A stretch of DNA of 62,222 nucleotides, counting the filler, from Asterionella formosa (taxonomy: Eukaryota): NCBI GenBank assembly GCA_002256025.1. It is 17 parts of 17 records of this genome, joined end to end, with 100 filler letters (N's around TTAATTAATTAA, not from the genome) between each part and the next. Parts side by side here need not be neighbours in the genome. Positions count along the whole stretch, not along the records: positions 58,329 to 60,226 come from NKIB01000901.1; 16 more parts are not named here. One strand, given 5' to 3'. The notes beneath the pieces are model-generated. The model was not told where the DNA came from and made no database searches. It saw only the letters and a program-made list of their open reading frames with translations. Below, piece by piece: positions 11,917 through 62,222 of this stretch (within the stretch, counting starts at the first letter, position 1; every line of letters starts with the position of its first letter). Made by a program: the position numbers and the translations under genes.

Positions 11917-12016
11917 NNNNNNNNNNNNNNNNNNNNNNNNNNNNNNNNNNNNNNNNNNNNTTAATTAATTAANNNNNNNNNNNNNNNNNNNNNNNNNNNN
12001 NNNNNNNNNNNNNNNN

Positions 12017-12726
12017 ATGTTATTCTGCTATATAAATACTGTCTATTTCAATTTCGAATACGTCTTGAGCGTTTTCTTGAGCATCTGTTAACTCGACCTT
12101 CACTCCCTTGGAGTCCTTCTCTCACTGTGAAACCTCTTCACCATTTAGGATACCGTCGAAATTCTCGTAGCGATCCCCAACCTACATACCGGTAGCTTTC
12201 ACCTTGCTTTCCGATGACGTCTTCGGGGTCTCGATGAACAATGTTGCTTCGATACGCGAAAGACAATCCAGCTACAACTTACCAGCAGCCTTTGCAAGAC
12301 ATGGTGAATGTATGAAAGGTTGCAAAAGTGAAGTGAAATCAGCTGCTGTCAGTAACACCGAAGTGGGATTGCAACACATACACCGGTTTTTTTAGGAGAT
12401 TCAATTTCTTCTGCTTATGTTCGAGTCTATCTTTTTGAAAACATTTACCATACGTGCTGTTGAAATTTATCGGCGTGCTTCTTCCTAGCGCACTCCAGCT
12501 CTGCAAAATCGCTCTCGGTGCCGCTCTTGTACATATTACTCTGCTATATAAATACTATCTATTTCAATTTCGATTACGCCTTGTGCGTTTTCTTGAGTAA
12601 CTGTCAAGTCGACCTTTACTCCCTTGGAGTCCTTCTCTCCTTGTGAAATCACTTCAACGTTTAGGATACCGTCGAAATTCTCGTTGCGATCCCCCCCGAC
12701 ATACATATTGCATTGCTTTCCGATGA
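12017..12726. repeat. Diverged direct repeat (~200 bp, units at about 12020-12218 and 12536-12726), each encoding the same unknown C-terminal peptide on the minus strand
   Basis: Both units translate to GDR.ENFDGILN.E..SQ.EKDSKGVKV....EIEIDSIYIAE*. Confidence 0.7.
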
Positions 12727-12848
12727 GAACTGTGGTTGTATATGTAATTTTTGGAATGTTTAAGTAGTTTTTATTTAGGCGCAATAATGGGCCATAGTGG
12801 ATTTTTCGGAAGACCAATTTCAGGTTTGATTCAGGGACCATCGATTAA

Positions 12849-13862
12849 GGCCGCTGCTAATAACCGGTTGACCCAAACCAAAACCCAAAAACTTATTTTT
12901 GGATTTGTTTTGGTTTTGGTCAACTGACGCAAAAACGATGCCATCGGTTTTTGGGACATCCTAAGAGCATCGCCATTGTCAACCACCCATCTACTGTGAC
13001 GTAGGATGACACAAAACCATTTAAAAAAAAAAAAATATTTCTATTAGACTACTTTTATAAATGAAATATTATGATTCCTATTTGGGAATTAGTTAGTTTT
13101 CCCCGCAATTTACCGGTAGTGCCGTAAATATATACCGTATACTCCGACCACACTTCTTCATGATGAAATACAACTGACAGCAGTTTCAGCAACCCAGACA
13201 GAATTGAATGCCACATACAAAAACAATGGTGTCTTGGTACAAACGAATTGGCGATGCGCCATTACTACCTGCAACTAATCATCTACTGCTTACTTACCAG
13301 ATATATTGATACAATGGGACATGGCGATGCACCAGTCCCAGTTGCCGAAGCTAAAAATACCGCCACCAGCAGCCTCAGTTGAAGAGGACAACGAGGATGA
13401 AGTCATGGTGACAGAAGAATGATTTATGTGTTCCGCATAATAAATCGACGTCGATTTGTTGTTGTTGTTGTTGTTGTTCTTGTTGTTCTTGCCAGTGTGG
13501 TATGGTACTACCCTGGTACCTGGTACCAGTACTGTATAGCTATTGTTGTATATAGATATGACAAACCGGTACCGGCATATGATGCATCCTATATGTAGTA
13601 GTGATTCTGCAATGATATTAATTGGGGTTCTAGTGACTACATTCAAAGTAGTCAATATGGAATCCTACTTTTAGGTAACTTTGGAAAAAAAACCTAAACG
13701 TAATGCATTTGGGTAACTTATTGGGATATGGGCACGGAATCCCCTAAACGTAATGCGTTTGTGTTGGGTTTTTCACTCCCGATAGCATCATTTTTAGGGT
13801 TACCGAAACCAAAACACTGTTTGGTTTGCGTTTTGGTCCACTGTTAGCAATGGCCTGAGGCC
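12849..13862. mobile_element. Non-autonomous Harbinger/Tourist-like element with nested termini
   Basis: TAA-GGCCGCTGCTAATA at 12846 versus TGTTAGCAATGGCC ending 13855 (imperfect TIR), then TGA-GGCC-TTA; internal TAA-GAGCATCGCCATTG at about 12962 is a second Tourist-like terminus. Confidence 0.55.
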
Positions 13863-14164
13863 TTAACTTATTTTTCCTGAAATGCAAAGATTGACTCAAA
13901 GGATCCTAACTGCTGTTNNNNNNNNNNNNNNNNNNNNNNNNNNNNNNNNNNNNNNNNNNNNTTAATTAATTAANNNNNNNNNNNNNNNNNNNNNNNNNNN
14001 NNNNNNNNNNNNNNNNNAGTTGGTATATCCAGACCGTACAAAAATCTGACAAACATAGCTAGTCATTAGTCTGGTTCCACGTTTTGATATGCAATCGATT
14101 ACTAATACTATAGAGCATATCTGAATTGTTACTATTTATATCACATTTTCGGAGCGATGATAAA

Positions 14165-14520
14165 TGATGTAGCAACCAAAATTTCAATCCATATTTCTCC
14201 ACCAATTTTTAGCCGATTTCTTTCTAGTAAAGTATTCGATGTACAAGAGATCAATGCCTTTATGTCAAATGTCGACATGCTCAGAACGAACGTATATTGA
14301 TCAAATTAGGCATCAGTATGTGTAAAAATTTCGGTGCTTGTGGACTGATGATCAGTGATGCAAGCACAAAAAGCACAAAAAATCCAATCCATATTTCGTC
14401 TCCAACAATTTGAAGCCGAATTATGTCTAGTAACCTAATCAATGTATTCAAGATCAATACCTTTATGTCAAATATCAATATGCTTAGAACAGACATATAT
14501 TGATCAAATTAGGCATCACT
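14165..14520. repeat. Diverged ~200-bp tandem duplication
   Basis: AATCCATATTTC..AGCCGA..CAAGA(GA)TCAAT..CTTTATGTCAAAT..ATTGATCAAATTAGGCATCA occurs twice. Confidence 0.65.
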
Positions 14521-15679
14521 TAATATTTGCAGTGCTTGCTTTGTCGTGTTCCATAATTTGGATAATCCAATTTTTCAAACAAAAATTTCCTTCCACAGTT
14601 ATCAATTTAGATGTAATGTAGCTGGTCTAAAAAGGAGATGGCCATTGTGGCACTTCTCATTTTCGACTTACCAAAGGATGTGCTAGCTAGTATGCTGCTG
14701 TGATAGATAGTACATTAGCAGCAATGTACCAGAACTCAAATCTATGATTCTCTACCAAATTGTATCCAGCTGCGAAATTGGAAAGGATTCGATGTGCATG
14801 AGATCAATTCCTATATTTTGTGTGTCGAGATGCAACAACTAGTACTATTTCTATCAAATTTTCAAATTCGATCGTTGACAGATCCTCATTCTTTGCTTCT
14901 TTTTCTATCATGTTCTTTCTAGAGTTATCATTGTAGACTATTTCTAGCCGCTCCGAAAAGGAGAAGGCAATCGATGCCCATCTCAATTTCGAGTTACTAC
15001 AGTGACATGCAAGTCTCAACAATGATCACTGAGTATCAACAATGTTTTTTTCTAATCTGTCTGGCAATTGAAAGCTCAACAAACAATCAGCAATGACAAA
15101 ACAATGTGCAATAATGTGTCGACTACTACAACTTCATCAGCTTAATTCTTCTGTGTGAATCTTCCTCTTGCAAGTGTCGTTCTTTGGCAGTTGGTATCAA
15201 AGAAATATGCTGGAGCGGGAAAATATCGCTCTTTTTTCGTTACATGGTGAAAGCAGCATAGTTTCACCATTTTACTACGGTCGCAATGGCTAGTTGGTCA
15301 ATATGTATTGTCGCAAACACACCTAATTATTGGTGTGATCACATTATTATTTGATGATTGAAATAATTTTTTAAACCTGAATAAATTACTGAAAAAGTAA
15401 CATGATAGTTTAGAAACGTAACAAAATATATCACTTTATGCATAAAAGTGTTGTAAACAGCGTCACTATCAGAGAAGGCGTGAGCAACCCTGGTTGACTC
15501 CCCCGGACACAGATCAGGCTGCTTCTGTCAGTGCCTCAACTGTTGCTAGCAAACATTAAATCCCACCTGGTCTCCCACCATCACTCCCACCTTTCATTAC
15601 AACTACAACTACAACGTCAACTCCGTCACCTGCCTCCTCCCAATAGGACAACGACATCAAAGGAGCAATCAGAAACCAA

Positions 15680-15918
15680 CTCTCGATACATTGGCAAAAC
15701 CAGGAACATTGAAGACCCAGACAATCATCATGGCTATTATTGCGCTGAAATAGACACTTGCGCCGATAACCTTGTGCTGGACAAGCTTTTCTACCTATCC
15801 ACAAGACAGGATGAGACGTTGATGTTAGCGGTTTCCACTCAACCCTTCTTGGCACAATTAAAGGCATCCCAATTGTATGTAAGCCACAGCCTTTGGCTCT
15901 CCTCAAGGAACCTATATC
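15680..15918 (+). pseudogene. Degenerate CoDi-type copia protease-region fragment
   Basis: AEIDTCADN resembles the (E)LDSHADT protease motif of diatom copia elements; frameshifted downstream. Confidence 0.5.
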
Positions 15919-16018
15919 NNNNNNNNNNNNNNNNNNNNNNNNNNNNNNNNNNNNNNNNNNNNTTAATTAATTAANNNNNNNNNNNNNNNNNNNNNNNNNN
16001 NNNNNNNNNNNNNNNNNN

Positions 16019-17919
16019 ATGAAATAGTTACGAAACTTCTAATCAAAGAAGTCGACAGAGGCTGGCAACTCCCACTCCCACCGGAAAATATCCGCCTACT
16101 ACCACACGCTGTTGTAGCGCCGATAGGTCTAGTGACGCAAGCCACAATCAACGCACACTGGGAAATAATAACCAAAGACCGGCTGACCCACGACCAATCA
16201 TTCGAGTTCTCCCCAGGGACTTCCGTCAACGCACGTGTCATATTTGACTCGCTGACACCATGTAGATACGGCACCGCACTGCGACAATTTATTCACTACA
16301 TAGTGGATCTAAGAAGAATCTATCCGGACACTCGAATTCTAATGACTAAATTAGATTTTAAAGCCGCGTATCGCCGCCTACATACATCGAGTCTCACAGC
16401 ATCACAGGCCATAGTCATTATCAATGATATAGCGCTTCTCGCTTTACGGATGACTTTCGGGGGGGCACCAAACCCAAGCATGTGGAGCGATGTCTCTGAA
16501 CTAGCATGCAACACGTGCAATTTGTTATCACGTTGCGACCGATGGAACTCGGAGTCCACGCCCACACTGGAATCCCCGCACCAACAAAAATACGTCACCA
16601 TGCCAAAGTACCTCAACAATAGGTCAACTTGTAAGCCAGCACAACCCATGAAGGTAGCGATCGACGCTGATCTAGCACCGTTTACTGAATGTTATCTAGA
16701 CGATCTATTTACGTGTTTCTTGGATAGTCCGACAGCTATATGGAAAGGTTCACGAATTACACTGCTTATGCTACATCTGTTGGGCAGACCTATAGCTGAC
16801 TCTGAACCCCTACAACGTGAAGATCTACTCGCGTTCGAAAAAATGACAGCAGAAGGCTCCCCAGAAGAATCCAAGATAATCTTAGGATGGGAGGTGAACA
16901 CACGCACCCTTCGACTACGCCTCCCCCACGATAAACTCACGTCCTGGAATGCAGAAATTGACCGCATACTACAGTTGCCCACGGTTGATTGTGAAGTATT
17001 AGCGACCACGATCGGTCGACTGAACCATGCCTCGTATGTGATCCCAACCGCTCGTGCCTTTCTATGCCATCTCCGACGTGCCGAACGGCGAGCAAGGGTC
17101 AGCGGAAAAAGAATTCCAATATCGGAATTACAAAAGGAAGAATTGCGGCAATGGCTCACCTTCTTATGTACCGAAAGCCAAGGAATCAGCCTAAACCGAC
17201 TAACACTACGTGTTCCCACCATTCTCCTGCGTGCCGACGCCTGCCAATTCGGAGGGTTCTCGCTCACATCGGGCCGAGCCTGGCGATTCGAAATTCCAAC
17301 AGAATGTCGGGGACATCTGTCGTTGAACCTACTGGAGTACCTTGCATCCATCACCACCATTGCAACTGAAGCCGCAGTCGGTAACATCAGACCCGACGAC
17401 TGCATTCTCTCCCAACTGGACAGCTGGACGGCGGATTATTGGCTTCACCGCGGTGGCGCACGGTTTCAAGGTCTAGAAAAATCGACCCATTTAGCAATCT
17501 CTCGCTGGCTCGCCGCAATCCTCGAGCAAACCCAGGCGTGTAGCTACAGCCAATGGATCCCAGGAGATGACAACGTGATAGCCGATGCCCTCTCTCGTGA
17601 TCATCATCTATCAAATGCACAACTAACACACCTCATCCATCACTCGGCCACCCACCAGATGCCCCCGAATTTCTCCATCTCGCCGCTCCCCACCGACATC
17701 GCCTCCAAGCTTACCTTATGGATGCAGATCGGGCGCGCTCCCAAGGACTTCAAGCTAACACCACAGCGAAGCTCAATCGCGTCTTCCGAATCTGGACCGA
17801 ATTCCTTGCGTCCATTGGATTTTGTGATGTCACCGATCCATTCCTCGCCAACCTCTCCCCAGAACAACGCATTCGACTCATCGGAGCGTTCGCGCATGCC
17901 GTCCGGCAGGCCGAGTTCA
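16019..17919 (+). mobile_element. DIRS/Ngaro-like tyrosine-recombinase retrotransposon: RT-RNase H ORF
   Basis: KDRLTHDQSF, KLDFKAAYRR, RMTFGG, YLDD, ILGW, IGRLNH, DAC, LNLLEYLA, WIPGDDNVIADALSR; frame open across the contig. Confidence 0.9.
17718..17919 (+). CDS. N-terminus of overlapping tyrosine recombinase ORF of the DIRS-like element (truncated)
   Basis: Different frame overlapping the RNase H tail: RSQGLQANT...WTEFL..IG...DPFL...LIGAFAHAVR. Layout typical of DIRS; catalytic residues lie beyond the contig. Confidence 0.65.
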
Positions 17920-39886: not shown

Positions 39887-40710
39887 CTATTGTGGTATTT
39901 CCATGATAGACTCCCGTTTATTAAGGGGCTTAATTAAATCAGCCAGTGACTTGTAGATACAAGAATTGACACAAAACAATTTGAAAACAATCAACAGGAG
40001 TTCGTGGAAAACTATGAACTCATCATGCATCGTATATATTTGAATTATGTATAATCAAAATTGATATTAGCATACACAGGATGTGCTGTATAATGAGCGT
40101 GTTTAAAACTATGTAAATGTTTAACTACATACACATTTAAACTTCTTACAAATCTTTATTTATATATGTATTCATGGCTGAAACATTTGAAATAATGTTT
40201 TCATGTTCCTTGTCATGCATACACTTTGCTCCTGAAATGAAGGATCATCACACATGATGACGCGGAAAACGAAAGAGATAATACAGCACAATGATACTTG
40301 CGGCTTAGAAGAGGGGGGCGGAATCAATTGATGGTAAGTCAAGAGCAAATGCCTTTCATGTTTCTTGTCATGCATCCACTTCCTGAAATGAAGGATCTCA
40401 AGTAACACATGATGCGAAAAACTGAAGTGACAATACAGCACGATGATACACCATGCGGCTAAGAATGAGTGAATATGACGAAGAAGGGCGGAATCAACAA
40501 GCTGTGCATAGTATCACGGCGTGTTAAGAGCAATTTCCAGGATGATCAATTGCTGGGATTACAAATATGGAATGACTCATCCCCTTTCAGTGATTCAATA
40601 GCTCCTTTTCGATTCAGAGGCTGGCCAACCATCAATGTGGACAAAAGAAATCGGTAAGTGCTATCAGCCATCTTTGGATCAATCCACAACTGTTAGAAAA
40701 ACTGACACAT
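38797..40710. repeat. Segment duplicated at 60328-62222 (same orientation, with indels)
   Basis: Colinear similarity over the whole last contig. Confidence 0.9.
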
Positions 40711-41507
40711 ATGTGTTGCTTCTCTCAGGATACTGGTAGTCAAACAGTATTTGTAAGTTACAAACAACAGCAGCATTGTAGCCCATTTATTGATCGATAC
40801 TTTCTTATTTAATCTTCAACTGACACTCACATTATTTTACAGAAATATGCATGAGTTACTTCCTCAATTTGTGGTAAGTGAAGATGGAAGCGAAATGCAT
40901 GTTGTTGTGTAAGCAAAACATGAACAGCTAACAGTGAATTGCTTCTCTTTGTTAGTATGGCTGATTGGGACAACGAAACGGATTCAATAGTAATAGGAAA
41001 ATGCGTGAATGCAAACTCAGATCCGTCAGGAGTAAATGGAACAACGCAGGGGAACAACGGCAAGGCAACCAGCACTACTACAACAACCTTCAGAATTGGA
41101 TTGGGGGGAAGGTGGAAGTGAAAGCGGCACCAACAATCATTGCGATGAGAGCAATTGTAGAACATTCTGTAGCCACTCAAGATATAGAAAGCAACATAAA
41201 ACCATTCTTATATATAGTTCTAAATTTTGATTAATGTCATCCTATTTTAGACAGTGAATTTCGATTAATGTCAACCTATTTTAGACAGTGATATCGATGA
41301 GAATTACGATCATGCTAAGATAGATGTATGACAAAAGTATACACATCATATGACCATGTTTAACTAATTATATGATGCAATGGTATCATAACTATGATAG
41401 TATCATCATAAATCAAGCTCAATTAAAGTTTACTACATGATCATAATTATATGATACATTGATCATACTTTTGATCGAATAACTATCATATATGTAAAAA
41501 TCCTGTG
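40075..41507. mobile_element. Possible CACTA/EnSpm-like (CACAG) element remnant
   Basis: 8-bp inverted termini CACAGGAT...ATCCTGTG; ATGATCAT-rich subterminal region 41300-41495; no TSD found. Confidence 0.3.
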
Positions 41508-41591
41508 CCACTTGGCGTACAATACCCTTGATCCTATATTCATGATAGTTTTTATTTACAGACGACATCTTGCACCTTGATTGACCTCTTG

Positions 41592-41867
41592 TGTTGAAAC
41601 TGCGTCCCGAAGCCCTATATTGCTTTCTTGTATCCTGTAAGGACACGTCCGGGACCACATAGGCTGTATATATGAACAACGATGTGCAGTAATAGATTGT
41701 AATCGTTCCTAAGAATTTTAGTAGAATTATGGGTTTTACTGGCGCTGTAGATTGTTTTCGAATTCTGAGTTTTCGCTGGTAACATATTCTTTTTTGATTT
41801 ATTTGATTCAATATGTCGTAGGTAATTCATACCGGGATTTTTCTTTCCTAAAATAGTTTCTCCAACA
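41592..41867 (-). repeat. 3' LTR (276 bp), preceded on the minus strand by a short PPT-like AGCAGGAGTG
   Basis: Direct repeat of 46763-47126; TG...CA termini. Confidence 0.95.
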
Positions 41868-44800
41868 CACTCCTGCTGGACGCAGATGCTCACTTTGAAT
41901 TCATAATTTGCTCACGAAAGTGAATGAATCTCGTTCCAACCAGTGGTTTTGTCATGTAGTCTGCAATCATTGCATCCGTTGGACAGTACTTAATCTTTGC
42001 TTCCTTTCTTTCAATAAGATCAGAAATGTAAAAATACTTGATGTTGAAATGTTGCGTGCATTTTCCTGAACTTGCCTTTCCATTAGCTTCTAGTTTCATT
42101 GCGCTAGTGTTGTCATGGTAAATGACATTCGTAGTCACCTTGTGTCCTTGTGCTTCAAGAAATAATTTCGTCCGCAATACCTTTGAAATAATGTTGTCGA
42201 CACCAACCAATTCTGCTTCAATCGAACTTCTAGTGTTCACTTTCTGTTTTGTAGACATAGAACAAATAATTCCGTTTCTAAGTGACAATGTAGCTCCTGT
42301 GTGACTTTTAAAATCTTTGTGTACTGCAAACGCCGCATCAACATACCATTTAATGCTCTGAGTGTCATCAGTACTCATAGATGCAACCTTATTCTGGGTT
42401 GCTTTCAAGAAATTCATGATCTTGACTAATTTTTCCAAATCGCCTTCATTCGGTTCAGTAGCTCGGGTTGCCAGGATTGCAATTCCTGGTTGAATGTCCA
42501 GTCTTCCTCGCTTACATAGGAACATTCCTTTCATAACAAAAGTATGAAATATTTTTGCTTTTTTCGAATTCAAGCTTCTTTGATGTCGTATCAAGCACCT
42601 GTGAACAATTTATCTGTCCATGGAAATTCTCCGACACCTTCAAGTTTCTCTGGAAATTAAAAATCATTGTTTTCACATATTTAGTCATGTCCACCCTCAA
42701 CACTCTTGGAAGAGAGTAATCTAGTGTCATTGCCGAATAATCATGCTTCTTTCCACACATGACCTTGACTACACCAATATCGTCAGAAGCGTATTTCGTT
42801 TTGAGCCATTCCAAAAATTGATCATTTACTTTGCTGTCCACGTGACTAGAATTTCAAATCGTCTACGTGCCAAGTAATTGTGTGCTGTTTGCCATTAACA
42901 GTGCGATTTGCAACGCATGGATCATATGGGTTGACCTTGAATCCAATTGACTCAATATTCTTCCGAAATTTCTTGTAATATAACAATGATGACTGTATCA
43001 TGCCATATAATGCCTTGATCATCCTAACATATAGGACCTTGTTGTTTACTTCATAAACAAAATATTTTTCATAAGTCTCGGGGCTGAGTTCTGTCAACAT
43101 ATTGACAAGTAAACCTCTAATCTTCATAATGATTTGCTCCCCTTTTTTCTTTCTCATCGATATCTACTTGCACAAATGCATTGGGTATATCTGCAGTCAT
43201 AACATCGCGATTTTGTTTTGCATCAACTGCTGCTGTTATCATAACAGATTCAGTCATGGTAGTTGGACTAGCTGCTTCATCTCTTTCCATGTATTCACGT
43301 TGTGAACTGCCATTGGCACAAGCTCTGCCTTTAATACTCTTGTCTCCCTTTTCAACCAAAAAATTAGACTTTCCATTGCACGTCGCCTTTCGATCTCTGT
43401 TAGGTCTTCAATCCTGATCGGTTCAAATACAGCTCTATCATGTAGTTGTTTCATTTCTTTATACGCAGCATCTCTTCCTTTCTGGTCAAATTTCTTGAGG
43501 CCTTTTCTTAAGCTGTATGACTGAACAAAATGAATTGCTTCTTTATCGATACACATCTCATTCAAATAACACATTGTCATGGCGATCACTTTCGCATTAT
43601 CAGTCGTGTATTCTTCTTGACAGTGTGCTTGGGTATGCAAATGATGTTGGACCATAGTTAGTTTTGATGGTGGTCTTAAGACTCTTCCATACCTTGTAGT
43701 TCTAACATTTGGGTCTGTGTCATCCTCATTGCTTGGATTGACTTCTAACATTGCCTCTTCATTTTCATTTACTGGTCATCCTCTTGGATATTGTTTAATT
43801 CAAGCTGTTCTGCTTCATATATTTCATCCGGAATTATTTCATCATAGTCTTCTCCGAGAATTTCATCACTGCTTTCATCGTCACTAGCGTGTTGATCTTC
43901 ATAATCTTCATCTTGTGCATCTTCAAATGCTTCATTGTCATAATACACTCCTGCAATCCAAGCAATATCATAAAATAGTTGTCCCGTTCGATTTGATATC
44001 TTGAGACCATCTGGAATATTTTCCTGCACAGCAAAGGCATGTACTTGATTTATGATTGCTGGGGCAAGTGGTAGAGGAGTAACTGCTTGTCTAGTGATCA
44101 ATGAATCTGTACTAGGTAGGTGTAATAGTGCATGACATCCTTGCACGTTGTCATTGTAGCGTAGATAAATGCAATCTAGGCTGCATGGTGCATTAGTGTT
44201 TTAAAACACGGGTTCTTCATGTGCTTGGACATAAGTGCCAAATGTATACTGACAATGTCGAGCATAGTCCAGATTTCGTTGATGTAAAATTATACGGGGA
44301 CATCCTGTTCTTTGCCGGAAAGAAATTCAGTCTCTTTGCAGATTCTGTGACTAGAATCTTAATCATCAGTCGTGCCAAATGTTTGAAAGGTAATCGATGA
44401 TAAGCTGCATGCACGCGTTCTTTAATCACTCGATTATTTCGCTCCGCTTCAGGAACATGTTCTTGTGGGTTTGCGTAGTTCATAGTGACTTGAAATTCAT
44501 TGGAAAGTTGTTCCATCAAAGGTCAAAACTCGTTGTCACAGTGGATTGTTGCAATTTTAAATTTTCCGGCATTATAAACATGGAATACCTGAGTCACAGC
44601 ATCTCGATAGACATCAGCTGTCTGATTCTTGACCCATTGCGCTGACCTATACATAATATTTCGAGAAATTATTGTGAGAAATGATTGTCCATTCACTTTC
44701 ATTCCATCCATGCAAAGAGTCACTTCCCGTTGAGCTTTGATAAGCTCTTTAGGAATCTCGATGTAGTCATTCACAACTGGCAGCGGCTTGCGACAAGTTG

Positions 44801-46748
44801 TCTTGCCTTTTAGTGTTCCGACGTCAGGTCCGAAAATTTTCTCGGCAATCTTGATATCATCGGTAGTCACTGGATTATTTTTGATCTTATTCATACAAAT
44901 TATTGCCTTGAAATCATTACTTGACGGTGTACCCAAGGCACGAAATAGATCATGAGCTCGCTTGACTCTTTCAAATTGACGTTCAGTGTAGAATGTTTTG
45001 TTTTCTTCAACTGTATTTAAAATTTGAGCATTCTCCGCCTTAATTGTTGTAGGAGGCTTGAAAACATATAGATTCATCCCAATTCTTTCAAATCGAACTG
45101 GTTTGTCAGGCAAATGAACAATAAATGCATCTTCTTTCTCAGAGTTGTAGGTAATCCTGTGCCTATCTGCCATTTCGGCATAACTGAAGATGTTGGTGAT
45201 TGCCTTGTCATTGAGCCATACTTCTCTACATTGTGGAAGATCAGCCTTAAATTTGTGGCCAGGTGCATGCTTCCATTGGTTGACATTCGAATGTTTTCAA
45301 CCATTTTTGGATTGCAAAAGACTGTGACACTTGATTGATTATCCAATAGTATCCAGTCACACATCTCAGATGCTTGGTAAAATTGTAGGTTCATATGAGC
45401 TCCCGCCCATCCAAATTGATTGACATTTGCTTGTTGTCAAGCTTGTGATGACAGTGGGTTGTTGGAATTAACAGAGGTAACCGTACTAGTCTCTGATGTA
45501 GAAGCCTGTGACTGTGCATGGCTTTGGGCCTTGTTGATAGCCCATTCCTCTTTGGGTTTATTCTTGTCTTGGCACAAAGGAGATTTGTGACCTGCTCTAC
45601 CACAGCAGTGACATTTTCCTTCCAACTGTGCAAACGATAAGTTCACATCTTCATCTTCCTTGCCTGTATCCTTTTGTTCTGTCTTTATTATGATCTCCTG
45701 GTTTCTTATGACTGTTGGGTTTATTTATTATGTCAAACCGATGGTTGCTGAGAACATTATTTGATTCAGTGGTGGTCTTCGGGTATTGATTGTTGCCAAG
45801 TGATTGTTGAGTGTTCAGCCCGGTCATAATTGATCCATATTTGGCTTTATCCGCATTATTGAGGTATAAATAGGCCATAAATTGACTGAATGCTTGTTCA
45901 CGAAATTTATTTTGTAGCTTGATGTTGGTCTTGTTGTACCCATCGATGGCTTCAACGAACTTGGTGAGGATAATGGGTCCTCCAATGTGTGACTTGCCAC
46001 ACGAAATCTCTTGGTGTAGTCTTGTAGACTTTCTCCTTCTTTTTTCTTTGTAAATAAAAGCGTTGCATCTAAAATGATCGACATTGAATATCGATTCCCT
46101 TGAAAATTTAGTGCGTGTTCTTTAATTGCCATAAGCAATGTTATTGGGTTATTTTTGATCCTATTGTAATCGGATCTCGCTTCGATCTTGTTCTTCATAG
46201 CCTTGTGGCATCTTTCCCAGAGCAACGCATATGCCTTGGTGTTATTATTTTCATAGGTCTATAACCTCTTGCTGTACGCGTTGTAATCGGCCTTAAACTT
46301 GATCTCAAATTGCCGATTCTCTGCAGTTCGATCTTCTTCTGTAGTTGCAGAGCTAAGCTGCATTCTTGGCTTCCATGCCAATGTGCTCATTGGTTCTAAT
46401 AACTCGAGCGCGGTTCCTATGTCGTTGCCATAGTCGAACACTTTCTTGATGTAGTTGATGAGGTACTCAGTAGTAGTCTCATAATCAAATGCCTGCTTCG
46501 ATGATCCAAGGTAGTACTTATAGTCATCAACTGACTTCTTGATGGTGTGAAAATCATTATTGCTCCCTCCCTTGGCTTGAAACTTGCCCTTGGCCTGAGC
46601 CTTCTTGGTAAACTTTCCTTTGCCACTCATGATGCGCCTTGTGCCACTTCTTCATACTCTGGATGGTCTGGTACCCTCAGATCTTGTCTCCGGACTCTCA
46701 ACGGTCCACCTGTTGTTGATTGTAATATTACGGCTCTTCCTGGCCGGC

Positions 46749-46762
46749 TAATTCTACTAAAC
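46749..46762 (-). promoter_or_regulatory. Non-tRNA primer-binding site, complementary to LTR-internal site 46887-46901
   Basis: Minus strand GTTTAGTAGAATTA directly follows the LTR end; no TGG. Confidence 0.65.
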
Positions 46763-47126
46763 TGTTGAAATTGCGTCCTGAAGCCCTCTATTGCTTTCTT
46801 GTATCCAGAAAGGACACATCAGGGACCAAATAGGCTGTAGATATTAGGAACAATGTTGCAGTAATTGATTGTAATCGTTCCTAAGAGTTTTAGTAGAATT
46901 ATGGGTTTTACTGGCAATGTAGATTGTTTTCGAATTCTGAGTTTTCTCTGGTACCATATTCTTTTTGAATCAATTGTAATTGTTCCTAAGAGTTTTACTG
47001 GCGATGTAGATTGTTTTCGAATTCTGATTTTTCTCTGGTACCATATTCCTTTTTGATTTATTTGATTCAATATGTAGTAGGTAATTCATAACGGGATTTT
47101 TCTTTCCTTAAATAGTTTCTCCAACA
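46763..47126 (-). repeat. 5' LTR (364 bp, with an internal ~90-bp tandem duplication)
   Basis: Direct repeat of 41592-41867; TG...CA termini. Confidence 0.95.
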
Positions 47127-47955
47127 TCTTGCTGCATCAGCAAACCAAATCTGGTTTGGCTTTGCTACTTTTCTCATCTGCTGTAAATTAATCAATTTGG
47201 GAATCAACTGACATCGAAGGCCAACTTTCTGATCCATTGGTAGAAATGTTTATTTGAATGCACGGTGAAGTATACTTGTAATGACACTTGTGGTATCGCT
47301 TGGGCAACATGCCAAACCACAATTGATGCAGTTGGACTGAGTACATGCTCATGCATGGGGTCCTTGATATGATGTCATTTACTTCCTTCCTTATCAGACA
47401 TTATTAATATCTCAATTCACTAAAAGATTACTCTCCACTTGAAGCGAATCAATCAAGACTCTTGCCATCTGTTTTTCGACGGGTTTTCGTTGTGGGACTG
47501 CACCGAGCTCCACCCACTCCAACTGGGAGAATGTCATGAAAAGTGATAGAGAGAAGATCCCCTGGTATTACAACCTTTACCCAGATTGTCTCAGTGACAG
47601 GATTAAGCTTGAAGAAGTCAAATTTAGCGTCCGGATTTCTTGGAGTAACGGCTTGAATGAAGTAATCGTGGGTTTCCGATAGAGGGCTGGAGGGATAAGG
47701 GAAGTAACTGCACTCAAATGAAAAGTGACCTTTAGGCAGTCAGTGCTTTGCCCCTGGCCACATGTTTCTTGTTGAACTGCTTCTAGCGCAGGAAGGGGTG
47801 GACGAACTCGAGGCTTACAGGTTGGTTTCGGTCTTGCTATCTGCTATGCATTATCATTGTCAGCCAAAGGAAACAAAAGGTGCTGCTCGCAACGAACCTC
47901 GTACACATTTTGGTTACCGGTACCAGGTACCAGGTAGTATACACTGATACCCTGA

Positions 47956-50900
47956 CCCCACTTTTTGATAAACCCTTAAACCCTACTAGCCTACATAGTC
48001 TTCGTATAAACCACCAATACGTTTTTGCCACACGAATCTTAGTTGGCTCCTTGACAACACTGCCATGCTGCACAAACGCATGCACATCATTGTGTTTGAA
48101 TTGACTCTGATGCCTCCTCAACCAAAGTTGTCAGAAGAAGATTGCTGACAGAGGTGGAGAAAGTGATTGTCCGAGATATGGCCAAAGCTGGGGTGACCAG
48201 CTCACAAATACAGAGTCACTTGAAGTTCAAAACAGGCAACCAACTAACAACAGCAAGAGAAATTTCGGATGAGGAGGCAGCTGCCAGGAAAGAATTTCTC
48301 AATGGGAGATCACCAGTACAAGCACTTTATGATTTGATTTCGTCTGGTGGATATACTTTTAAAGTGAAACTAGCTAGGCGATAATGGCAATTTGAAAGCA
48401 TTGTTTTTCTTGAACAAGGACAGCATGCTGGCTTTCTCATGCAGGTACTACAAATATGTGTTTATGATGGACTGTTCCTACAAGAAAAATCGATTTGGGA
48501 TGCCGTTACTGAACATTGTTGGGATCACTTCCACCTTCAAACATTCAATGCTGGTTTTGCTTTTTTGTCTGCCGAAAATGAAGATTACCAATGGGCTCTT
48601 GAAGCATATGGGTCAATTGTTGAGCCTAAACTCCTAATCACAGACCCTCCTAATCACAGACCGAGAGCTTGCGCTCATGAATGCCATTAATAGTGTTTTC
48701 CCAAATCGCATACATTTGCTATGCATTTGGCATATGAACACTACTATTTTCACAAACACAATGACAGATAAGTGGGACTCTGAGGAAAAATTCAAAAACT
48801 TTATGGGGAGGACTGGAATTCTCTCCTCTATTCTGGGAAACAAATTGACTTCGAGCATAATTGGCAGGGCTTCCAGGATACTAAGTACAACTCTATTGCA
48901 AAACATTCATTAGATTATATTGCCAGAACTTGGATTCCTTTAAAGGAAAAATGTGTGTCATGTTAGGCAGACAAACACCTCCATCTTGGGTCAGTTACCA
49001 CTTCTAGAATTGAAGGCAACCATTCTGTTTTGAAGAAGTATCTCAAACACATCAATAATGACTTGCTTATGTCTATTCAAAAGATAGACACAATACTTGA
49101 CAACCAAGTCACGGAGATTAATGCTTTGATATGTAAAGAGACAATGCAGATAACCCACCGGCATTCTAACCCAATGATTGCTGCATTGACTCGAAAAATG
49201 TTGCAACATGCCCTAGCTAGATTTGTTCATGGTGGAATTTAAAGCTGCCAAGTATGTTGAAAACTCAATTTGCGAATGTAACTTCAGCACAAAATATGGT
49301 ATCCCATGTAGACATACTATCTGCGACAAAATGGAGAGCTCCGGAACATTCCAAAGCACCGATTTTCACGAGCATTGGATGCTTCAGCATGAGACTTCAT
49401 CCCCAGCAGCCAACAATGTCTCCTCTCCACGACAGAAACGGCTGAACTCAATCCAAGAGACCCTATATTCGGTAGATGCTGATCAAGTTACCGTTTTATT
49501 GCAAAGACTTGAGGAAGCCACTTCTCGACCGCTACATATGCTTTCAAATCCAGTGGCCAGTGTAGTTAGAAAGCGTGGACGTCCTCCAGGTTCTAAGAAC
49601 CGTGCTAGTAATTAACGAGATAAGTCAAGATTTGAATATGTCAGTGGAAATCAATGTGGTTATTGCGGGGTGAATGGGCACAATTCATGTACCTGTCCCA
49701 AATGAATAGCTAGATATACTTATTTTTAGTAAAGCATATCATATGTAGTCAATGCACTCTGAACTACACTTTGAATGCTATTCATTGTTAAACAAAGACT
49801 CAATAGTAAACACCTGGTAAATTGAATATTTTGATCGATATGCTGTAGCAAAGAAATTACCTTTGCACAATACCTGTTGATGCCACTGTCTACACACCCA
49901 TCAGTGTTGAGCAATCTCTTTTCTTCAGCAGCATTTTGTGCTGAAAGTCGAATGAATAGCTCAAGAGAGGAATTGTGGACTCGACAATTAGAAGTTGCTG
50001 ATACACTGCTCTGTGATTTGGGTGGGCTATCTTTCCATCTTTGTAAAGAATGAGTCTCAAACCAGGATTTCCTAAGCATAGAAAATTTCCCAAAGCATTT
50101 GAGATTCAATCCACTGCCTCGGGACCAACTCGCTCACTTGTGCCAGAAAATCAGCAACTTTTGGAAAGTGTCCAATCTGCTACCACACCCGCACCTGGAT
50201 CGCCTTTTTCCAAGTCGAGCCAATCCATGAAGAATTTTTTGCCAAACCATAGAAGCATCAACAGTGAATTGCAATTTGTGCCTTATATGTAGAACAAGGA
50301 CAAGATATACTATAGTATACATTGAACTAATAGTAGAATTTCATCCAAAAGCTCGAAATGTCATTGGACTGACACCTTGTACCTTGTACCTTGCTTGCTT
50401 CAACCTGAGCTCGTTGCAGTATCATATGAGCAATGGATCCTGTGAAATAATGGCCATTGGCTCTCACGTAAAGTCATTGTTCTTTGTTTTGGTGGATCCT
50501 CCAACAATAGAGCCACCACCCGGCTAAGTCAATGCTGAAGATGAGTGTAGTCCATGCTTGCTGGGTCCTGGGTTTCCTCTTGGTGTGGTCTGACAAATAC
50601 AAAGTGATCTATTCACGTATCAACAACAACTGTTTCTATTGTTTGGCTCAAACTCTGGATGTATAGTTGGCCTAGTAATGACGGCTGGAGATACAAGTGC
50701 TGCAGCATGGAAATTGCTGGGTTGTTGTGCTGTTGACTTTGTGGCATGCTAGTCTATCGCCTGTGATTTGAAGCAATTCAGCTGCCAGCGCTTTGGTCAG
50801 ATGAGATTGAACCACCCAGCAGTATGTGTAAATCATTAGCAGAAATACTTTCCGTTCGGAAAATATTTCTGCTGCCAGTTCCATCATGTTTGCAAGTGTC

Positions 50901-51000
50901 ATGGAGGAGTCAACTAAGATTCTTGTGGCAAAAAAGTATTGGTGGTTTATACGAAGACTATGTAGGCTAGAAGGTTTAAGGGTTTATCAAAAAGAGGGGG
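47956..51000 (+). mobile_element. MULE (Mutator/FAR1-like) DNA transposon, degenerate, with ~100-bp TIRs
   Basis: TIRs 47956-48055 and about 50900-51000; transposase fragments 48140-49705: MDCSYKKNRFGMPLL, TDRELALMNA, HLLCIWH, TTSRIEG.H..LK, SWIM-like CEC..GIPCRH, AT-hook KRGRP, CCHC knuckle; no TSD seen. Confidence 0.9.
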
Positions 51001-56230: not shown

Positions 56231-56330
56231 NNNNNNNNNNNNNNNNNNNNNNNNNNNNNNNNNNNNNNNNNNNNTTAATTAATTAANNNNNNNNNNNNNN
56301 NNNNNNNNNNNNNNNNNNNNNNNNNNNNNN

Positions 56331-57254
56331 GCGATTGTACTTCATCGAGCGAAAGTGGAAATGTGGGATCATTCTCATCCAATGAGGCAGTCCACATTAT
56401 TTCGAGTTGCTGAGGTTGGGCTTGAGTTTGCCAGCAACCACACACGGGTCCTATATCCATGGGACCCAGAATCTTCTATTCTGGTATTCACAGGGATACC
56501 TCCTCATGTTGCACTATTGCAAGAAGTGCAGGGGCTGCAGCGCTTAATCTTAGGTCTTGTAGATCAGTTTGATGAGAGACTTACAAAACAACTTGACCAG
56601 AGACAAATAAATGGTGGAATGTTGGGTGATACCAGAATGATTGACCTAATTCGTCAAGGGACCAGTGACCTTAGGGCAGCTGTTGCAGCAGCTGGGCAAA
56701 ATTCATTACATTCAGGAGCAGAACTTGCGGTTATTAATGGAGGACCTGGAATTACTGGTAGAGATGGCACTACTATGATTGCACCAAAGCGGTTTACACT
56801 ACATATGTATGGTGGGCAATTCCATGTTCTACCCCAGACATGGAGGTTACCAATGAGTCTTGGTCCCTTAGACTTGTGGATGCAATGGTGGTTGGGAGAT
56901 GTGAGGAATGATGTTCCTCCCCTTAAGATTTTGCAAGGAAGAGATGTCTACCATCTAGATTTCATAATGGCAGAGGAGGGTCGTGGTACTAGAAAGGCTC
57001 GCAAAATTCTGTGTGACATAAGATTCTTGATGGTATACTTAGAGAACAAAGTCAGGGCTACTGGAAAGTGGGTTGAAACTCATACAGTGTCCTCAGTTCT
57101 GGCAATGTATTATGAAGTAGTAGAAACTCTGGTGGTAAATGATGGTAACAATCAGCATCATATACGCCGCCATCCTCAGTTAAGATGGCAGACATTGGTG
57201 TTGATCCTTCGCAAGCAAGAAAAGCATTTATCCATGGGCATGCTAGAAGAATAG
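56331..57254 (+). mobile_element. C-terminal part of a Crypton-like (CryptonS-type) tyrosine recombinase protein
   Basis: TGIPPHV, then GGQFHVLPQTWRLP..LDLWMQWWLGD...VPPLKIL (GCR1_C-like); catalytic residues not in the contig. Confidence 0.65.
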
Positions 57255-57842
57255 TGTATGATTTTTTACCATTACTTAAGTCCAAATACAGGTATTTCAG
57301 TACCATCTTTAATCTGACCAGCCACAGTGCATCAGCCATACATAATATACCTATATCAGTATGCAGGTGAGACATGCATCATGCCAGCCGCTAAATACCG
57401 GGATATCCGCTACCGGTAAAGATGTGATGCTCATTTTCGACATCATGCATAACATCCAAGCTGATTCTGGATTCCGTTTTTCCATATACTCGTGTGTAGA
57501 ATTCGTCGTATGTAGCTACCTGGTACAAACGGAACACACCGACCTCAGTGTCCGGTAAAATGGTTGTGCAACTCAATGTCAGTAGCGCAGCACTACCGGT
57601 AAACCTGGTACCGGTACCTGGTTTCCAGGTAACATACCTGTACTCCGGTACCTGGTAAAAGGGGTACTCACCTGGTACCAGGGTACCGTGCAGGAGGTAG
57701 AGGCATGTACGGGTGTTATGTACTGTAGTCACCACTGTAAATTCTTGTTCTGACTCCTCCATCACTCATACAAATAGGAAAGTCACAATCACCATACCAC
57801 AACAACTTATTCTTCACAACAACTTGTGCCTTTGACAACAAG

Positions 57843-58228
57843 AATGCCTGGAGGCCGTAGACATCCTGCATTTTGTTCTAAAGGGAGGACAGATGAACCT
57901 GTTGTAGTAATTGGAGGCAATATTGATGTCCATGATGAGCACTTGGGTCAAATTCAAGAGACAGAAGATAACAGGCGAAAGCTGAAAACAAAACAGGAGC
58001 ACCGCAACAGATTGAAGGTAATAATTCAATGGTTGAAAGATCAATACCCTCAGTATACTGCATTAGGTGGAGTTATTTCAATTTCTCAAGAGCATGCAAG
58101 AAACCCAAATTTTTTCCGACACACAAACACAGAAGACTTAAAGTACAATGGGATCAATGTCACTCTCATCAAAGCATTTCTTAGCTCTGCGAAGCGAAAA
58201 TCAAATGGAAAAATATGCTCATTTTCAA
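57843..58228 (+). mobile_element. N-terminus of a Crypton-like tyrosine recombinase protein (truncated)
   Basis: TKQEHRNRLKVIIQWLKDQYP...DLKYNGINVTLIKAFLSSAKRKSNGKICSFS resembles N-termini of diatom Crypton-like proteins. Confidence 0.55.
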
Positions 58229-58328
58229 NNNNNNNNNNNNNNNNNNNNNNNNNNNNNNNNNNNNNNNNNNNNTTAATTAATTAANNNNNNNNNNNNNNNN
58301 NNNNNNNNNNNNNNNNNNNNNNNNNNNN

Positions 58329-60194
58329 TTTCATTAAACCATACTTCTCCCCATTCTGGAAGATCAGCCTTCATATTAGTTACCATGGATCCACCATTTG
58401 TGGCCAGGTGCATGCTTCTGTTTTTTGACATTCGAATGTTATTAACCATTTTTGGGTTGCATAAGACTGTGACACTTGATTGATTATCCAATAGTATCCA
58501 GTCAGGCATCTCAGATGCTTGGTAAAATTGTAGTTTCATATGAGCTCCCGTCCATCCAAATTGATTGGCATTTGCTTGTTGTGAAGCTTGTGATGACGGC
58601 GGGTTGTTGGAATTAACAGAGGTAACTGTACTCGTGTCGCATGTATTAGCCTGTGCCTGTGCATGGCTTTGGGCCTTGTTGATAGCCCATTCCTCTTTGG
58701 GTTTATTCTTGTCTCGGCACGAAGGAGATTTGTGAACTGCTTTTCCGCAGCAGTAACATTTTCCTTCTAACTGTGCAAACGATAAGTTCACATCTTCGTC
58801 TTCCTTGCCTGCATCCTTTTGTTTCCTCTCTTTATCATTATCTCCTGGTTTCTTGTAGTTGTATTTATTTGTTACATCAAACCGATGGTTGCTGAGAACA
58901 TTATTTGATTCGGTGATTGTCTTCGGGTATTGATCATTGCCAAGTGATTGCTGAGTGTTCAGCCCGGTCATAATTGAACCATATTTAGCTTTATCGGCTA
59001 TTATCGAGATATAAATATGCCATAAATTGACTGAAAGCTTGTTCGTGAAATTTATCTCATTGCTTGATGTTGTTCTCATTGTATCCTTCCATGGCTTCAT
59101 TGAACTTGGTGAGGATAATGGGTCCTCCCATGTGTGACTTGAGCACATCTCGTGCCACACGAAATCTCTTGGTGTAGTCTTGTAGACTTTCTCCTTCCTT
59201 TTGCTTTGTGAATAAAAGTGTTCTCATCGCATCTAAAATGATCGACATTGAATATCGATTCTCTTGAAAATTTAATGCGTGTTCTTTAATTGCCATAAGC
59301 AATGTTATTGGGTTATTTTTGATCCTATTGTAATCGGATCTCGCTTCAATCTTGTTCTTCATGGCTTTGTTGCATCTTTCCCAGAGCAACGCATATGCCT
59401 TGGTATTATTATTTTCATAGGCCTGTACCCTTTTACTGTAGGTGTCATAGTCAGCCTTAAACTCGATCTCAAACTGCCGATTCTCTGCGGCGCGATCTTC
59501 TTCTGTTGTTGCCATGCTCACTTGCATTCTTGGCTTCCATACCGATGTGTTGATTGGTTCTAATGACTTGAGTGCGCTTCCAATGTCGCTGCCATAATCA
59601 AACACTTTCTTGATGTAGTTGATGAGATACTCAGTAGTAGTCTCATAGTCAGATGCCTGCTTCGATGATCCGAGGTAGTAGTTATAGTCATTGACTGACT
59701 TCTTGATTGACTGAGAAGCAATATTGCTCCCTCCCTTGGCTTGAAACTTACCCTTGGCAAGAGCCTTCTTGGTAAACTTTCCTTTGCCACTCATGATGCG
59801 CCCTGTGCGACTTCTTCAGACTCTGGATGGTCTGGTACCCTCAGATCTTGTCTCCGGACTCTCAATTGTCCGCCTGTTGTTGATTGTGGTATCACGGCTC
59901 TTCCTGAAAGGGCTAATTCTATTAAAACTGTTGAAATTGCGTCCCGAAGCACTCTATGCTTTCTTGTATCCTGTAAGGACACGTCAGGGACCAAATAGGC
60001 TGTAGATATAACAACGATGTCTCCGCGATCGATTGTAATCGTTCCTAAGAGTTTTAATAGAATTATGGGTTTTTACTGTTGGCGTAGATTGTTTTCGATT
60101 TCTCTGGTACCATATTCTTTCTTGATTCATTCGATTCAATATGTAGTAGGTAATTTATACCGGGATTTTCTTTCCTAAAATATTTTCTCCAACA
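58329..60194 (-). mobile_element. 5' part (LTR, PBS, gag, protease) of the same copia family as 41592-47126
   Basis: LTR 59929-60194; gag ATG 59794; TGA at 59057 and a frameshift near 58999; CYCCGKAVHKSPSC; WILLDNQS. Confidence 0.95.
59914..59928 (-). promoter_or_regulatory. Non-tRNA primer-binding site, 15/15 complementary to LTR-internal site 60051-60065
   Basis: Minus strand GTTTTAATAGAATTA directly after the LTR end CAACA; the LTR carries TAATTCTATTAAAAC on the same strand. Confidence 0.7.
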
Positions 60195-60327
60195 AAGGGG
60201 GCTTCGTCGGGATAGACGTGGCTAAANNNNNNNNNNNNNNNNNNNNNNNNNNNNNNNNNNNNNNNNNNNNTTAATTAATTAANNNNNNNNNNNNNNNNNN
60301 NNNNNNNNNNNNNNNNNNNNNNNNNNT

Positions 60328-62222
60328 TGACAAATAGGTACCTACGGGAAAAGGAAGCAATGCTTTCAGCATCATCAATCTAGCTATACACAAGCCTGCG
60401 CCACCTGATGTCGTCAATATAGCTACCTCGACTTCATCAATGAAGAAGTCAATAGGTGGAGCATGTGAGGAAAATCGGGGTTGAGGTTTTCTTGACGCCA
60501 ACGTGGACCTGCTTGGCTGAACTCCTTGCAGATGAAGGCATTGAGTAACCTGGGCCTGTGAAGCCAAAGGATGAAGAAAAATCTACGACAAGGGTGGTGA
60601 GATAGTGTTTAGGAGGAGGGGGGAGCTAAAGATTTCATAGCTGAATGCATTTGAAACTTGTATAGACAATAAATGGTGGAATACCATGGCTGCTCTTGCT
60701 TGGCTGACAGCTGCCAAGTCAAGTACAAACACAACAAGAGAGGGTGCACAAAAGTAAAAAATCAACAGCAGGGCATATATGCTGATGCACTGCTCCTTGT
60801 GTAGACTAGCTACATTTGATCATTTCCATATTTCATACTATACAGGTGCATGGATGACTCCTCCCGCCCTTTCATTAGATATGCAGCCATATTGCGATAA
60901 TTCTACAGGACCTATAGGATTGGTAGTCTGGTGGTCATCATTTCCGCATTGTATATACCAGTAGGAGTCACCATGTATGCATGCATGCTGCGATAATTCT
61001 TACAAGACATAAAAATTTGGTAGCTTGGGGGTTATCACTTCTGGACTGTACACAGGGGGGGAAGGGGTTGCATGCATGAGCATCGAATACTATGGTATAA
61101 AATATGATCTTTAATCAATGAATTTAGATTCGTTTATCCTATAACTTTGATCATAACATATTGATCATATGATGAACGGTCTCGTTGATGAGAAAATGAA
61201 CGATCAACATTTATTTTCAAGGATCAGGATCAATTGATCTTAGAAATATGATCAAATGATCCTAAACAAATGAGCATATTCAGTTTTTCTCTGCACTATT
61301 GTGGTATTTCCATGATGGAAGTAATTACCAGCAATTATACATTACTACCGGTAGGCCATATGAATTTTGGCCAATATGTCTTTTTACATAAATGTATGAT
61401 TTCGACCATTTGAAAAATTTGTGATGACTCCCGTTTATTAAGGGGCTTAATTTAATCAGCCACTGACTTGTAGGTACAAGAATTGACACAACAAAAATTG
61501 AAAAAACTCAACAGGTCGTGGAAAACTATGAACTCATCATGCATTGTATATATTTGAATTATGTATAATCAAAATTGATGAAAGTATACACAGGATGTGC
61601 CGTATAATGAGCGTGTTTCAAACTATGCAAATGTTCAACTTTATATACATTTAAACTTCTTACAAATCTTTATATATATGTATTCATGGCTGAAACATTT
61701 GAAATCATGTTTTCATTTTCCTTGTCATGCATACACTTTGCTCCTGAATTGAAGGATTAACACAGATGATGACGCCGAAAACGAAAGTGATAATACAGCA
61801 CAATGATACTTGCGGCTTAGAAGAGAAGGGCGGAATCAATTGATGGTAAGTCAAGAGCAAATGCCTTTCATGTCGTTCCTTGCCATGCTGCATCCACTTC
61901 CTCAAATGAAGGATCTCAAGCAACACATGATGCGAAAAACTGAAGTGACAATACAGCACGATAAGAATGAGTGAATATGATAGAGAAGGGCGGAATCAAC
62001 AAGCTGTGCATAGCATCACGGTTTGTCAAGAGCAAATGACAAGATGATCAATTTCTGGGATTACAATTACGGAATGACTCGTCCCCTTTCAGTGATTCAA
62101 TAGCTCCTTTTCGATTTGGTGACTGGCCAACCATCAATGGCTGTGGACAAAAGAAATCGGTATGTGCTGCCTATCAGCCATCTTTGGATCAATCCACAAC
62201 TGTTAGAAAAACTGACACATAT
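60328..62222. repeat. Paralogous copy of 38797-40710
   Basis: Colinear; lacks about 39200-39360 and has ~110 extra bp at about 61315-61425. Confidence 0.9.

Follow-up and report, generated by a model that had tools for sequence, protein, structure and literature searches.

How does a long terminal repeat (LTR) retrotransposon begin reverse transcription when no transfer RNA (tRNA) site follows its 5' LTR? The question is raised by a Ty1/copia-type element present in two copies, both on the minus strand, in a stretch of 62,222 nucleotides (nt), filler included, from the diatom Asterionella formosa (assembly GCA_002256025.1), which as a whole we call the window. The original prediction held that this lineage is independent of tRNA and primes itself, the primer-binding site (PBS) beside the LTR being complementary to a site within the LTR. 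Our analysis supports that interpretation, through a duplex that co-varies across the clade, through the diversity of the PBS and through its position at the end of the LTR. We conclude that minus-strand DNA is probably primed, as in Tf1, by the element's own RNA through its 5' end, and we would give this explanation a probability of about 0.78.

In copy 1 the LTR begins with TGTTGG, the first base of which is at 60194, and ends with an A at 59929; contigs from public sequencing runs split into unlike flanks exactly at these two positions. The 15 nt that follow, GTTTTAATAGAATTA (59928-59914), are the exact complement of TAATTCTATTAAAAC inside the LTR (60065-60051), and adding the A:T pair 59929:60050 gives a perfect duplex of 16 nt. 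This agrees with the match of 16/16, counting the terminal A of the LTR, that had been claimed, and the letters and coordinates given earlier for both copies all check out. A repeat search returns the copy 1 duplex with arms at 59914-59932 and 60047-60065 (19 nt, 95% complementary). Reading the sequence that follows the LTR in both copies also bears out the claim that neither TGG nor a half-tRNA site is present there.

Copy 2 (41592-47126) has decayed into 11 open reading frame (ORF) fragments. It does carry the double change from A:T to G:C that had been reported, and carries it in the PBS, the 5' LTR and the 3' LTR. A further change, absent from the original prediction, is the loss of one T from the GTTTT run of the PBS, which leaves a contiguous duplex of only 13 nt. 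The boundaries of the LTRs are fixed independently, because copy 2 is flanked by a CAAGA target-site duplication and the run contigs of copy 1 break at the LTR ends; the junction of ...CCAGCAGGAGTG with TGTTGG is common to copy 2 and to four related metagenome loci (L002, L004, L012 and L058). Within the window the family has three LTRs only, and sequence from outside it was therefore needed.

A Gag profile built from 40 sequences retrieved 78 metagenome loci with Gag identities of 40-93%, and for each locus the longest perfect inverted repeat upstream of gag was taken as its duplex. Among the named Gag relatives of copy 1 are two pennate diatoms, Fragilaria crotonensis and Nitzschia inconspicua, and the public runs that contain the element are labelled as algae, freshwater, lake, riverine and estuary metagenomes. 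A perfect duplex of 13-17 nt stands in the equivalent position in 50 of the 78 loci (43, plus seven after the search window was widened). Three further loci have a duplex with one mismatch (T.C in L039, G:U in L052, T.T in L070), a deletion has removed the PBS of L053, and the LTR of L047 is missing its 5' part. Two loci (L062 and L078) have enough upstream sequence, yet no convincing duplex, and 21 of the 78 are too short upstream to score, namely L043, whose candidate PBS lies too near the contig start, and 20 others.

With the two window copies, the sources that bear a duplex number 52 and the distinct duplex sequences 39, with 19% G+C. Most duplexes are of 15 nt (30 sources) or 16 nt (18 sources); two are of 13 nt, one is of 14 nt and one of 17 nt. 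A minimum spanning tree over the duplex sequences has an edit length of 117. Five nearest-neighbour pairs are separated by a single substitution, and every one is compensated; that between L021 and L036 (T-to-C on one arm, A-to-G on the other) is of the same kind as the change seen between the window copies. The co-variation first proposed from two copies is, with 50 loci and 39 duplex sequences, strongly positive in additional copies and related lineages.

The R-U5-PBS segments were aligned with MAFFT (alignment A4; 45 rows, 42 of them distinct), admitting only loci with a perfect stem of at least 12 nt. In A4, 94.6% of the cells are paired, against 62.4% in shuffles, and changes on both sides are found at 13 of the 16 pairs (206 such cells). 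Neither the observed pairing nor the covariation score is attained by any of 500 shuffles, and when the partner is slid by one to three columns the pairing falls to 35-43%. One-sided states of the G:U type are absent from 15 of the 16 pairs and occur in one cell at the last. We suggest that the arms are near-pure Watson-Crick, and drift freely between lineages, because one arm would be recopied from the other; arms of this kind, with sharp edges, would not be expected of a helix maintained solely by folding selection. RNAalifold applied to A4 predicts the primer stem and nothing else, the stem is within the minimum-energy fold of all 48 distinct R-U5-PBS sequences, and the folding z-scores lie between -2.5 and -4.6 for the 11 sequences that were given shuffles.

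The stems are longer than chance provides. Upstream of gag the longest perfect inverted repeat is 16 nt in copy 1 and 13 nt in copy 2, lengths attained by none of 30 shuffles of the upstream region (shuffle maximum 11). Control windows of 700 nt taken inside gag/pol of related loci (n=49) have longest inverted repeats of 7-11 nt. Shuffling was also applied to 42 related loci that have a perfect duplex and at least 300 nt upstream; in 41 the stem is unattained by 30 shuffles, and in L059 one shuffle of the 30 attains it.

In each of the 52 sources the 3' arm, which is the PBS, starts either at the conserved LTR terminus ...CAACA or immediately past it; the terminal A of the LTR is inside the duplex in 44 of them, and the 5' arm lies 65-167 nt further upstream, within the LTR. 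As far as sequence can place it, the PBS arm sits exactly where minus-strand synthesis must begin. The PBS takes the form of 36 distinct 14-mers among 51 sources and is so variable that no match to conserved host tRNAs is possible; past it the sole conservation is N-CCG (59910-59913 in the window; A4). The LTR is not followed by TGG, the PBS varies from lineage to lineage, and a search of 59780-60222 against Rfam gave no match; judged by these features, a PBS of the tRNA type is absent. ARAGORN found no tRNA genes in the window and none in the 49 of the 78 loci scanned. Right after the primer arm comes (T)CTTAG(R) (60044-60050 in the window), in which T, T and G are at least 90% conserved in A4. 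For neither this motif nor N-CCG was a pairing partner found; either could be the context of a cleavage site or a downstream promoter element.

We propose the following pathway. Within the LTR, a TCAYW initiator would set the start of transcription at its invariant A (A60066 in copy 1). The first 15-17 nt of the RNA would fold back across about 65-167 nt of R-U5, and the folded-back 5' end would pair perfectly with the 14-16 nt after the LTR, usually together with the terminal A of the LTR. The complementarity is present in the sequences; that the arms pair in vivo is what we infer from it. The RNase H of the element would then cut the RNA 3' of the paired stretch, beside the conserved (T)CTTAG, and the freed 3' OH would be extended through U5-R to give strong-stop DNA. 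Plus-strand synthesis would later copy the primer and rewrite the PBS, as the pattern of compensated changes suggests.

The composition of the 5' edge of the duplex was compared in the 50 sources with at least 45 nt upstream. An A is found at position 0 in 50/50, a C at -1 in 48/50 and a T at -2 in 36/50, followed by a pyrimidine at +1 and by A or T at +2 in 50/50 each. This TCAYW resembles the initiator of stramenopiles and metazoa, which an extract of the published work gives as YCAYTYY in a stramenopile (an oomycete) and YYA+1NWYY in mammals, with the start usually at the A; in the diatom tested, according to the same extract, no such motif other than the initiator was seen (PMC3599244). 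We place the start of transcription in copy 1 provisionally at A60066, and the primer arm most likely begins at RNA nucleotide +1 or +2, as in Tf1. The invariant CA of the initiator-like motif fits the start near 60065 that had been anticipated. The 45 nt upstream of the arm are A/G-rich, with a TATA-like word in 1/50 sources, and the TATAAAT at 60159-60153 is not conserved, copy 2 having TATGAAT. As a separate observation, AATAAA or ATTAAA occurs in the primer arms of L003, L005, L009, L010 and L037 and in the window (60051-60060), where it could be a poly(A) signal at the start of R; it is not universal, arms of the marine CTTTTTCAATTC type being without it.

Several observations weigh against this reading. 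The transcription start, the cleavage that would free the primer and the identity of the primer are all inferred. Only 17 of the 42 distinct rows of A4 have the invariant A paired; if this A is +1, then some PBSs are without a copy of it. No metagenome contig begins at the arm, the nearest starts being 12 and 19 nt upstream, and RNA-library contigs span the arm and reach into U3 (59992-60163 in run X23 and 60021-60161 in run X24). Since only loci with a perfect stem entered A4, its shortage of G:U pairs is partly by construction; among the three loci with an imperfect duplex, L052 has a G:U and the other two have mismatches. A second helix like that of Tf1, CTTAG:CTAAG, was tried and rejected (71.2% paired versus 71.0% when shuffled), and a hairpin beside the primer arm was rejected as well (4.9 versus 4.4 of 8 nt paired).

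The run data (X1, X13, X23 and X24) consist of contigs, in which starts, ends and strand are unreadable. RNA-library contigs cover gag and the LTR in three runs, and DNA may be present in them. Contigs that bridge the arm into U3 are expected from the U3-R of the 3' LTR, and an upstream start or carried-over DNA would fit equally; those of X23 and X24 that end near 60161-60163 are whole short contigs, which probably end at a variable site. As a lead only, we note that the summed word depth of contigs between the arms (59931-60058) is about 8,500-17,000 in X24 and 10,000-136,000 in X23, while in the RNA libraries it is about 200-2,000 over U3 (60059-60186) and about 100-1,100 on the gag side (59057-59930). 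Run X13 has raised depth only over 59931-59994, and the DNA run X1, which shares its sample with X24, stays level at 1.5-1.9 million. Contig depth cannot rank the parts of a gene, and the excess between the arms is not used here as evidence; if real, it could be a short RNA initiated in the LTR, read-out from solo LTRs or a strong-stop product.

Could the duplex mean something else? A chance match, or an artefact of assembling repeated LTRs, might be suspected from the window, where only two copies can be compared, and from L002, L004, L022 and L058, which are collapsed or tandem LTR assemblies. The 50 loci come from many assemblies, however, with 39 perfectly compensated sequences and observed values attained by 0/500 shuffles; the shuffles, the covariation test and the control windows have already refuted this explanation, and its probability is negligible. 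A structural role is a more substantial alternative: the arms might form a long-range helix between R/U5 and the leader that serves packaging, dimerisation or translation control, the real primer being something else. A stem that closes a panhandle in the minimum-energy fold of 48/48 sequences would suit such a helix, as would RNA-library contigs that run across the arm into U3, and there is a fungal parallel in the copia element GalEa, which also lacks a tRNA PBS and has a conserved hairpin of unknown role (PMC5445492, in extract). Yet the duplex is exactly at the start of minus-strand synthesis, and the sequence after the LTR offers no other conserved candidate PBS, only N-CCG. The pairing, moreover, is near-pure Watson-Crick with sharp ends and one G:U cell in 42 distinct rows, whereas the control helix CTTAG:CTAAG has many G:U pairs. 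We consider a purely structural helix unlikely.

The same LTR sequence might also prime in trans, either from a second, co-packaged genomic RNA or from a separate short RNA initiated in the LTR. Sequence cannot distinguish cis from trans, and the depth of RNA-library contigs, which between the arms far exceeds the values for U3 and gag and has no counterpart in the flat DNA run, offers this possibility a lead, though only that. The loop between the arms is nevertheless held to the narrow range of 65-167 nt, folding back is the minimum-energy structure in 48/48 sequences, and in Tf1 the fold-back is intramolecular, all of which counts against priming in trans; we regard it as very unlikely and prefer self-priming by the RNA that is itself reverse transcribed.

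The assignment to Ty1/copia made in the original prediction holds, given an RVT_2 reverse transcriptase (RT), an integrase encoded before it, LTR ends of the TG...CA type and a target duplication of 5 base pairs (bp). The LTRs read TGTTGG...CAACA, and the 5-bp duplication CAAGA surrounds copy 2. Because the ORF fragments of the window matched Pfam only weakly (RVT_2 at 17.4 bits, from the decayed copy), the classification was made on intact relatives, which encode a single polyprotein (1428 amino acids in L001, 1646 in L003) with a CCHC knuckle near residue 350 in a motif scan. RVT_2 is matched in L001 with 42.9 bits (cut-off 31.6, E 5.9e-11) and in L003 at residues 1163-1393, near the C-terminus, with 34.5 bits for the C-terminal portion. 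Residues 580-900 of L003 were modelled with low confidence overall (predicted local distance difference test score, pLDDT, 46) and with a core of 70-81; when the model was compared with the PDB by Foldseek, the top hits among the matches listed were all lentiviral integrase chains, in the catalytic core, with a best E of 7.7e-07. The integrase fold lies some 450 residues upstream of RVT_2, which is the copia order, integrase preceding RT and RNase H (PMC3601003, in extract).

Other searches for the domains of the polyprotein gave less. In the middle of the L003 polyprotein, Pfam with E up to 1 gave only SH3_retrovirus (E 0.14); phmmer and a profile search of PDB sequences gave nothing useful for the integrase, and a simple motif scan of the polyprotein found no HHCC, DSG or YxDD words. 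Atlas neighbours bear gag_pre-integrs, rve and SH3_retrovirus, which we record as a lead only. A match to DUF5662 in ORF fragments of the window was rejected as being at chance level in Pfam. Membership of the Tf1/sushi group of Ty3/gypsy chromoviruses was likewise rejected, since the RT is RVT_2 and the integrase precedes it. We conclude that the elements are Ty1/copia-type LTR retrotransposons of pennate diatoms. The features of the two window copies are collected in the table.

Table. Features of the two copies of the element, in window coordinates
Feature	Position	Strand	Remarks
5' LTR, copy 1 (TGTTGG...TTTCAACA)	59929..60194	-	Aligns with the LTRs of copy 2, L002 and L004
PBS, copy 1: LTR terminal A (59929) plus 15 nt GTTTTAATAGAATTA (59928-59914)	59914..59929	-	
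LTR arm, copy 1 (proposed self-primer) TAATTCTATTAAAACT	60050..60065	-	16/16 Watson-Crick with 59929-59914
Initiator-like motif CCATA	60064..60068	-	C60067 and A60066 invariant; 5' edge of the duplex
CTTAGG	60044..60049	-	Directly 3' of the primer arm; conserved
gag ORF, copy 1	59057..59794	-	245 amino acids; 202 homologues
5' LTR, copy 2	46763..47126	-	Internal tandem duplication of about 87 bp
LTR arm, copy 2 TAATTCTACTAAAAC	46887..46901	-	Bears the C of the compensated pair
PBS, copy 2 GTTTAGTAGAATTA	46749..46762	-	Bears the G of the compensated pair
3' LTR, copy 2	41592..41867	-	Arm TAATTCTACTAAAAT at 41729-41715
Polypurine-tract-like AGCAGGAG	41870..41877	-	Just upstream of the 3' LTR
Target-site duplication CAAGA (5 bp)	47127..47131 (5' side); partner 41587-41591	-	

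The window is a chain of pieces of about 2 kb joined by N44-TTAATTAATTAA-N44 linkers (1906-26019 and 56231-60326), and copy 1 is truncated at both ends because of these assembly joins, not because of its biology. It is cut by the linker at about 58330, and the frame of its gag is broken near 59000-59060; at position 58999 most run contigs are one base short relative to the window. In copy 2, the tandem duplication of the 5' LTR spans 46857-47062. Its upstream unit is without the primer arm and reads ...CAGTAAAAC followed directly by TCTTAGG at about 47000-46985, which is most simply explained by a deletion between a pair of TAAAAC repeats. Elsewhere in the window there are a direct repeat of about 700 nt with 89-100% identity (40002-40712 and 61516-62222) and inverted repeats of 106 nt (82%; 47956-48061 and 50895-51000) about 2.8 kb apart, all of which may be further mobile elements.

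Among the metagenome loci, 3' LTRs are confined to four: L012, where the repeat is truncated, L003, where it is partial, and L022 and L058, which are tandem or collapsed. No poly(A) tails are found at locus ends. L022 (4678-5105 and 9944-10371) and L058 (1-200 and 5265-5464) repeat the LTR, PBS and leader after a full internal region; either the elements are in tandem with a common LTR, or circular or collapsed repeats have given rise to an assembly artefact. Two Gag homologues with 67-70% identity (P0006 and P0007) are NCBI entries under the name of a bacterial metagenome-assembled genome (Culicoidibacterales); in all likelihood they are diatom contigs that were wrongly binned with a bacterial genome.

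To our knowledge, the Tf1/sushi group of gypsy elements is the only one in which experiments have demonstrated self-primed reverse transcription. The primer duplex of Tf1 is 11 nt, and Lin and Levin reportedly described, in 1997, an extra conserved helix of the U5-IR type beside it. The diatom duplex, unlike that of Tf1, is 13-17 nt, mostly 15-16, and usually has the terminal A of the LTR inside it, and no extra U5 helix is supported. Like Tf1 and Tf2 of Schizosaccharomyces pombe and Tj1 of S. japonicus, the diatom elements have, after the 5' LTR, a PBS that complements a stretch of their own LTR, which would lie in the 5' RNA, and no tRNA PBS. In these yeast elements, according to extracts of two papers, the self-primer in R hybridises to the PBS and the RT cleaves it off (PMC5341516, PMC4600332). 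They belong to Ty3/gypsy, whereas the diatom RT is RVT_2 with the integrase before it, and diatom self-priming is predicted from sequence, not known from experiment.

Within copia, an extract of PMC6317226 has self-priming predicted from sequence for the plant lineage TAR (Houba, Osr-1), so the earlier remark that self-priming has been proposed only sporadically for copia elements is fair. TAR resembles the diatom elements in being a copia lineage whose PBS complements its own LTR and not a tRNA, by prediction only; it differs in its hosts, land plants and not diatoms. Fungal GalEa, another copia element, likewise lacks a tRNA PBS; it has a conserved pairing feature that takes in the last A of the LTR, and it shares one copia branch with the diatom CoDi clades. 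In the extract of the GalEa paper, the feature is a local palindrome of 9 bp, the last A of the 5' LTR included, with no complementary sequence in U5 or the LTR (PMC5445492); the diatom site, by contrast, is not palindromic, and its partner is 65-167 nt upstream in the LTR. We rejected a conserved hairpin site of the GalEa type for the diatom elements, the partner being distant and within the LTR. Copia elements primed by half or full tRNAs (Osser, Bianca, Ty1 and others) belong to the same superfamily and have the PBS in the same place. Theirs, as the same extract of PMC6317226 has it, matches the conserved tRNA-Met or tRNA-Ile, whereas the diatom PBS is variable and only 19% G+C. Our literature search found no description of a PBS or of self-priming in diatom copia elements, and Maumus et al. 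2009 (PMC2806351) has, in the main text to which this statement is limited, no passage on the PBS or on tRNA priming. We conclude that the diatom case joins the already-known self-primed LTR retrotransposons; what is new is the broad diatom copia clade and its rich compensatory record.

These findings suggest that the stramenopiles are a second eukaryotic supergroup with the sequence pattern of self-priming in copia-type elements. The 39 pairs of primer and PBS form a natural compensatory series on which the making of a primer by the retroelement itself could be tested, and they explain why standard PBS finders based on tRNAs would miss or mis-annotate these very abundant diatom elements. They also provide an annotation rule for LTR ends and likely starts: TCAYW, 15 nt and then, some 65-170 nt further on, CAACA and the complement. 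It is possible, though we hold it doubtful, that self-priming is a general and ancient mode of the whole diatom copia radiation, freshwater and marine, with Gag identities down to 40%, and that it is coupled to the promoter, the initiator setting both +1 and the 5' end of the primer. If this is true, the choice of start site would gate transposition, as it is said to have been shown to do in Tf2, and the excess of contig depth between the arms would be a short LTR-initiated RNA or a strong-stop product. The finding bears on whether, in LTR elements, hairpin priming is older than tRNA priming, a matter discussed in the extract of PMC3601003. Were the general mode to hold, hairpin priming would be placed on the copia branch that holds Ty and GalEa, which would support tRNA priming as the later of the two.

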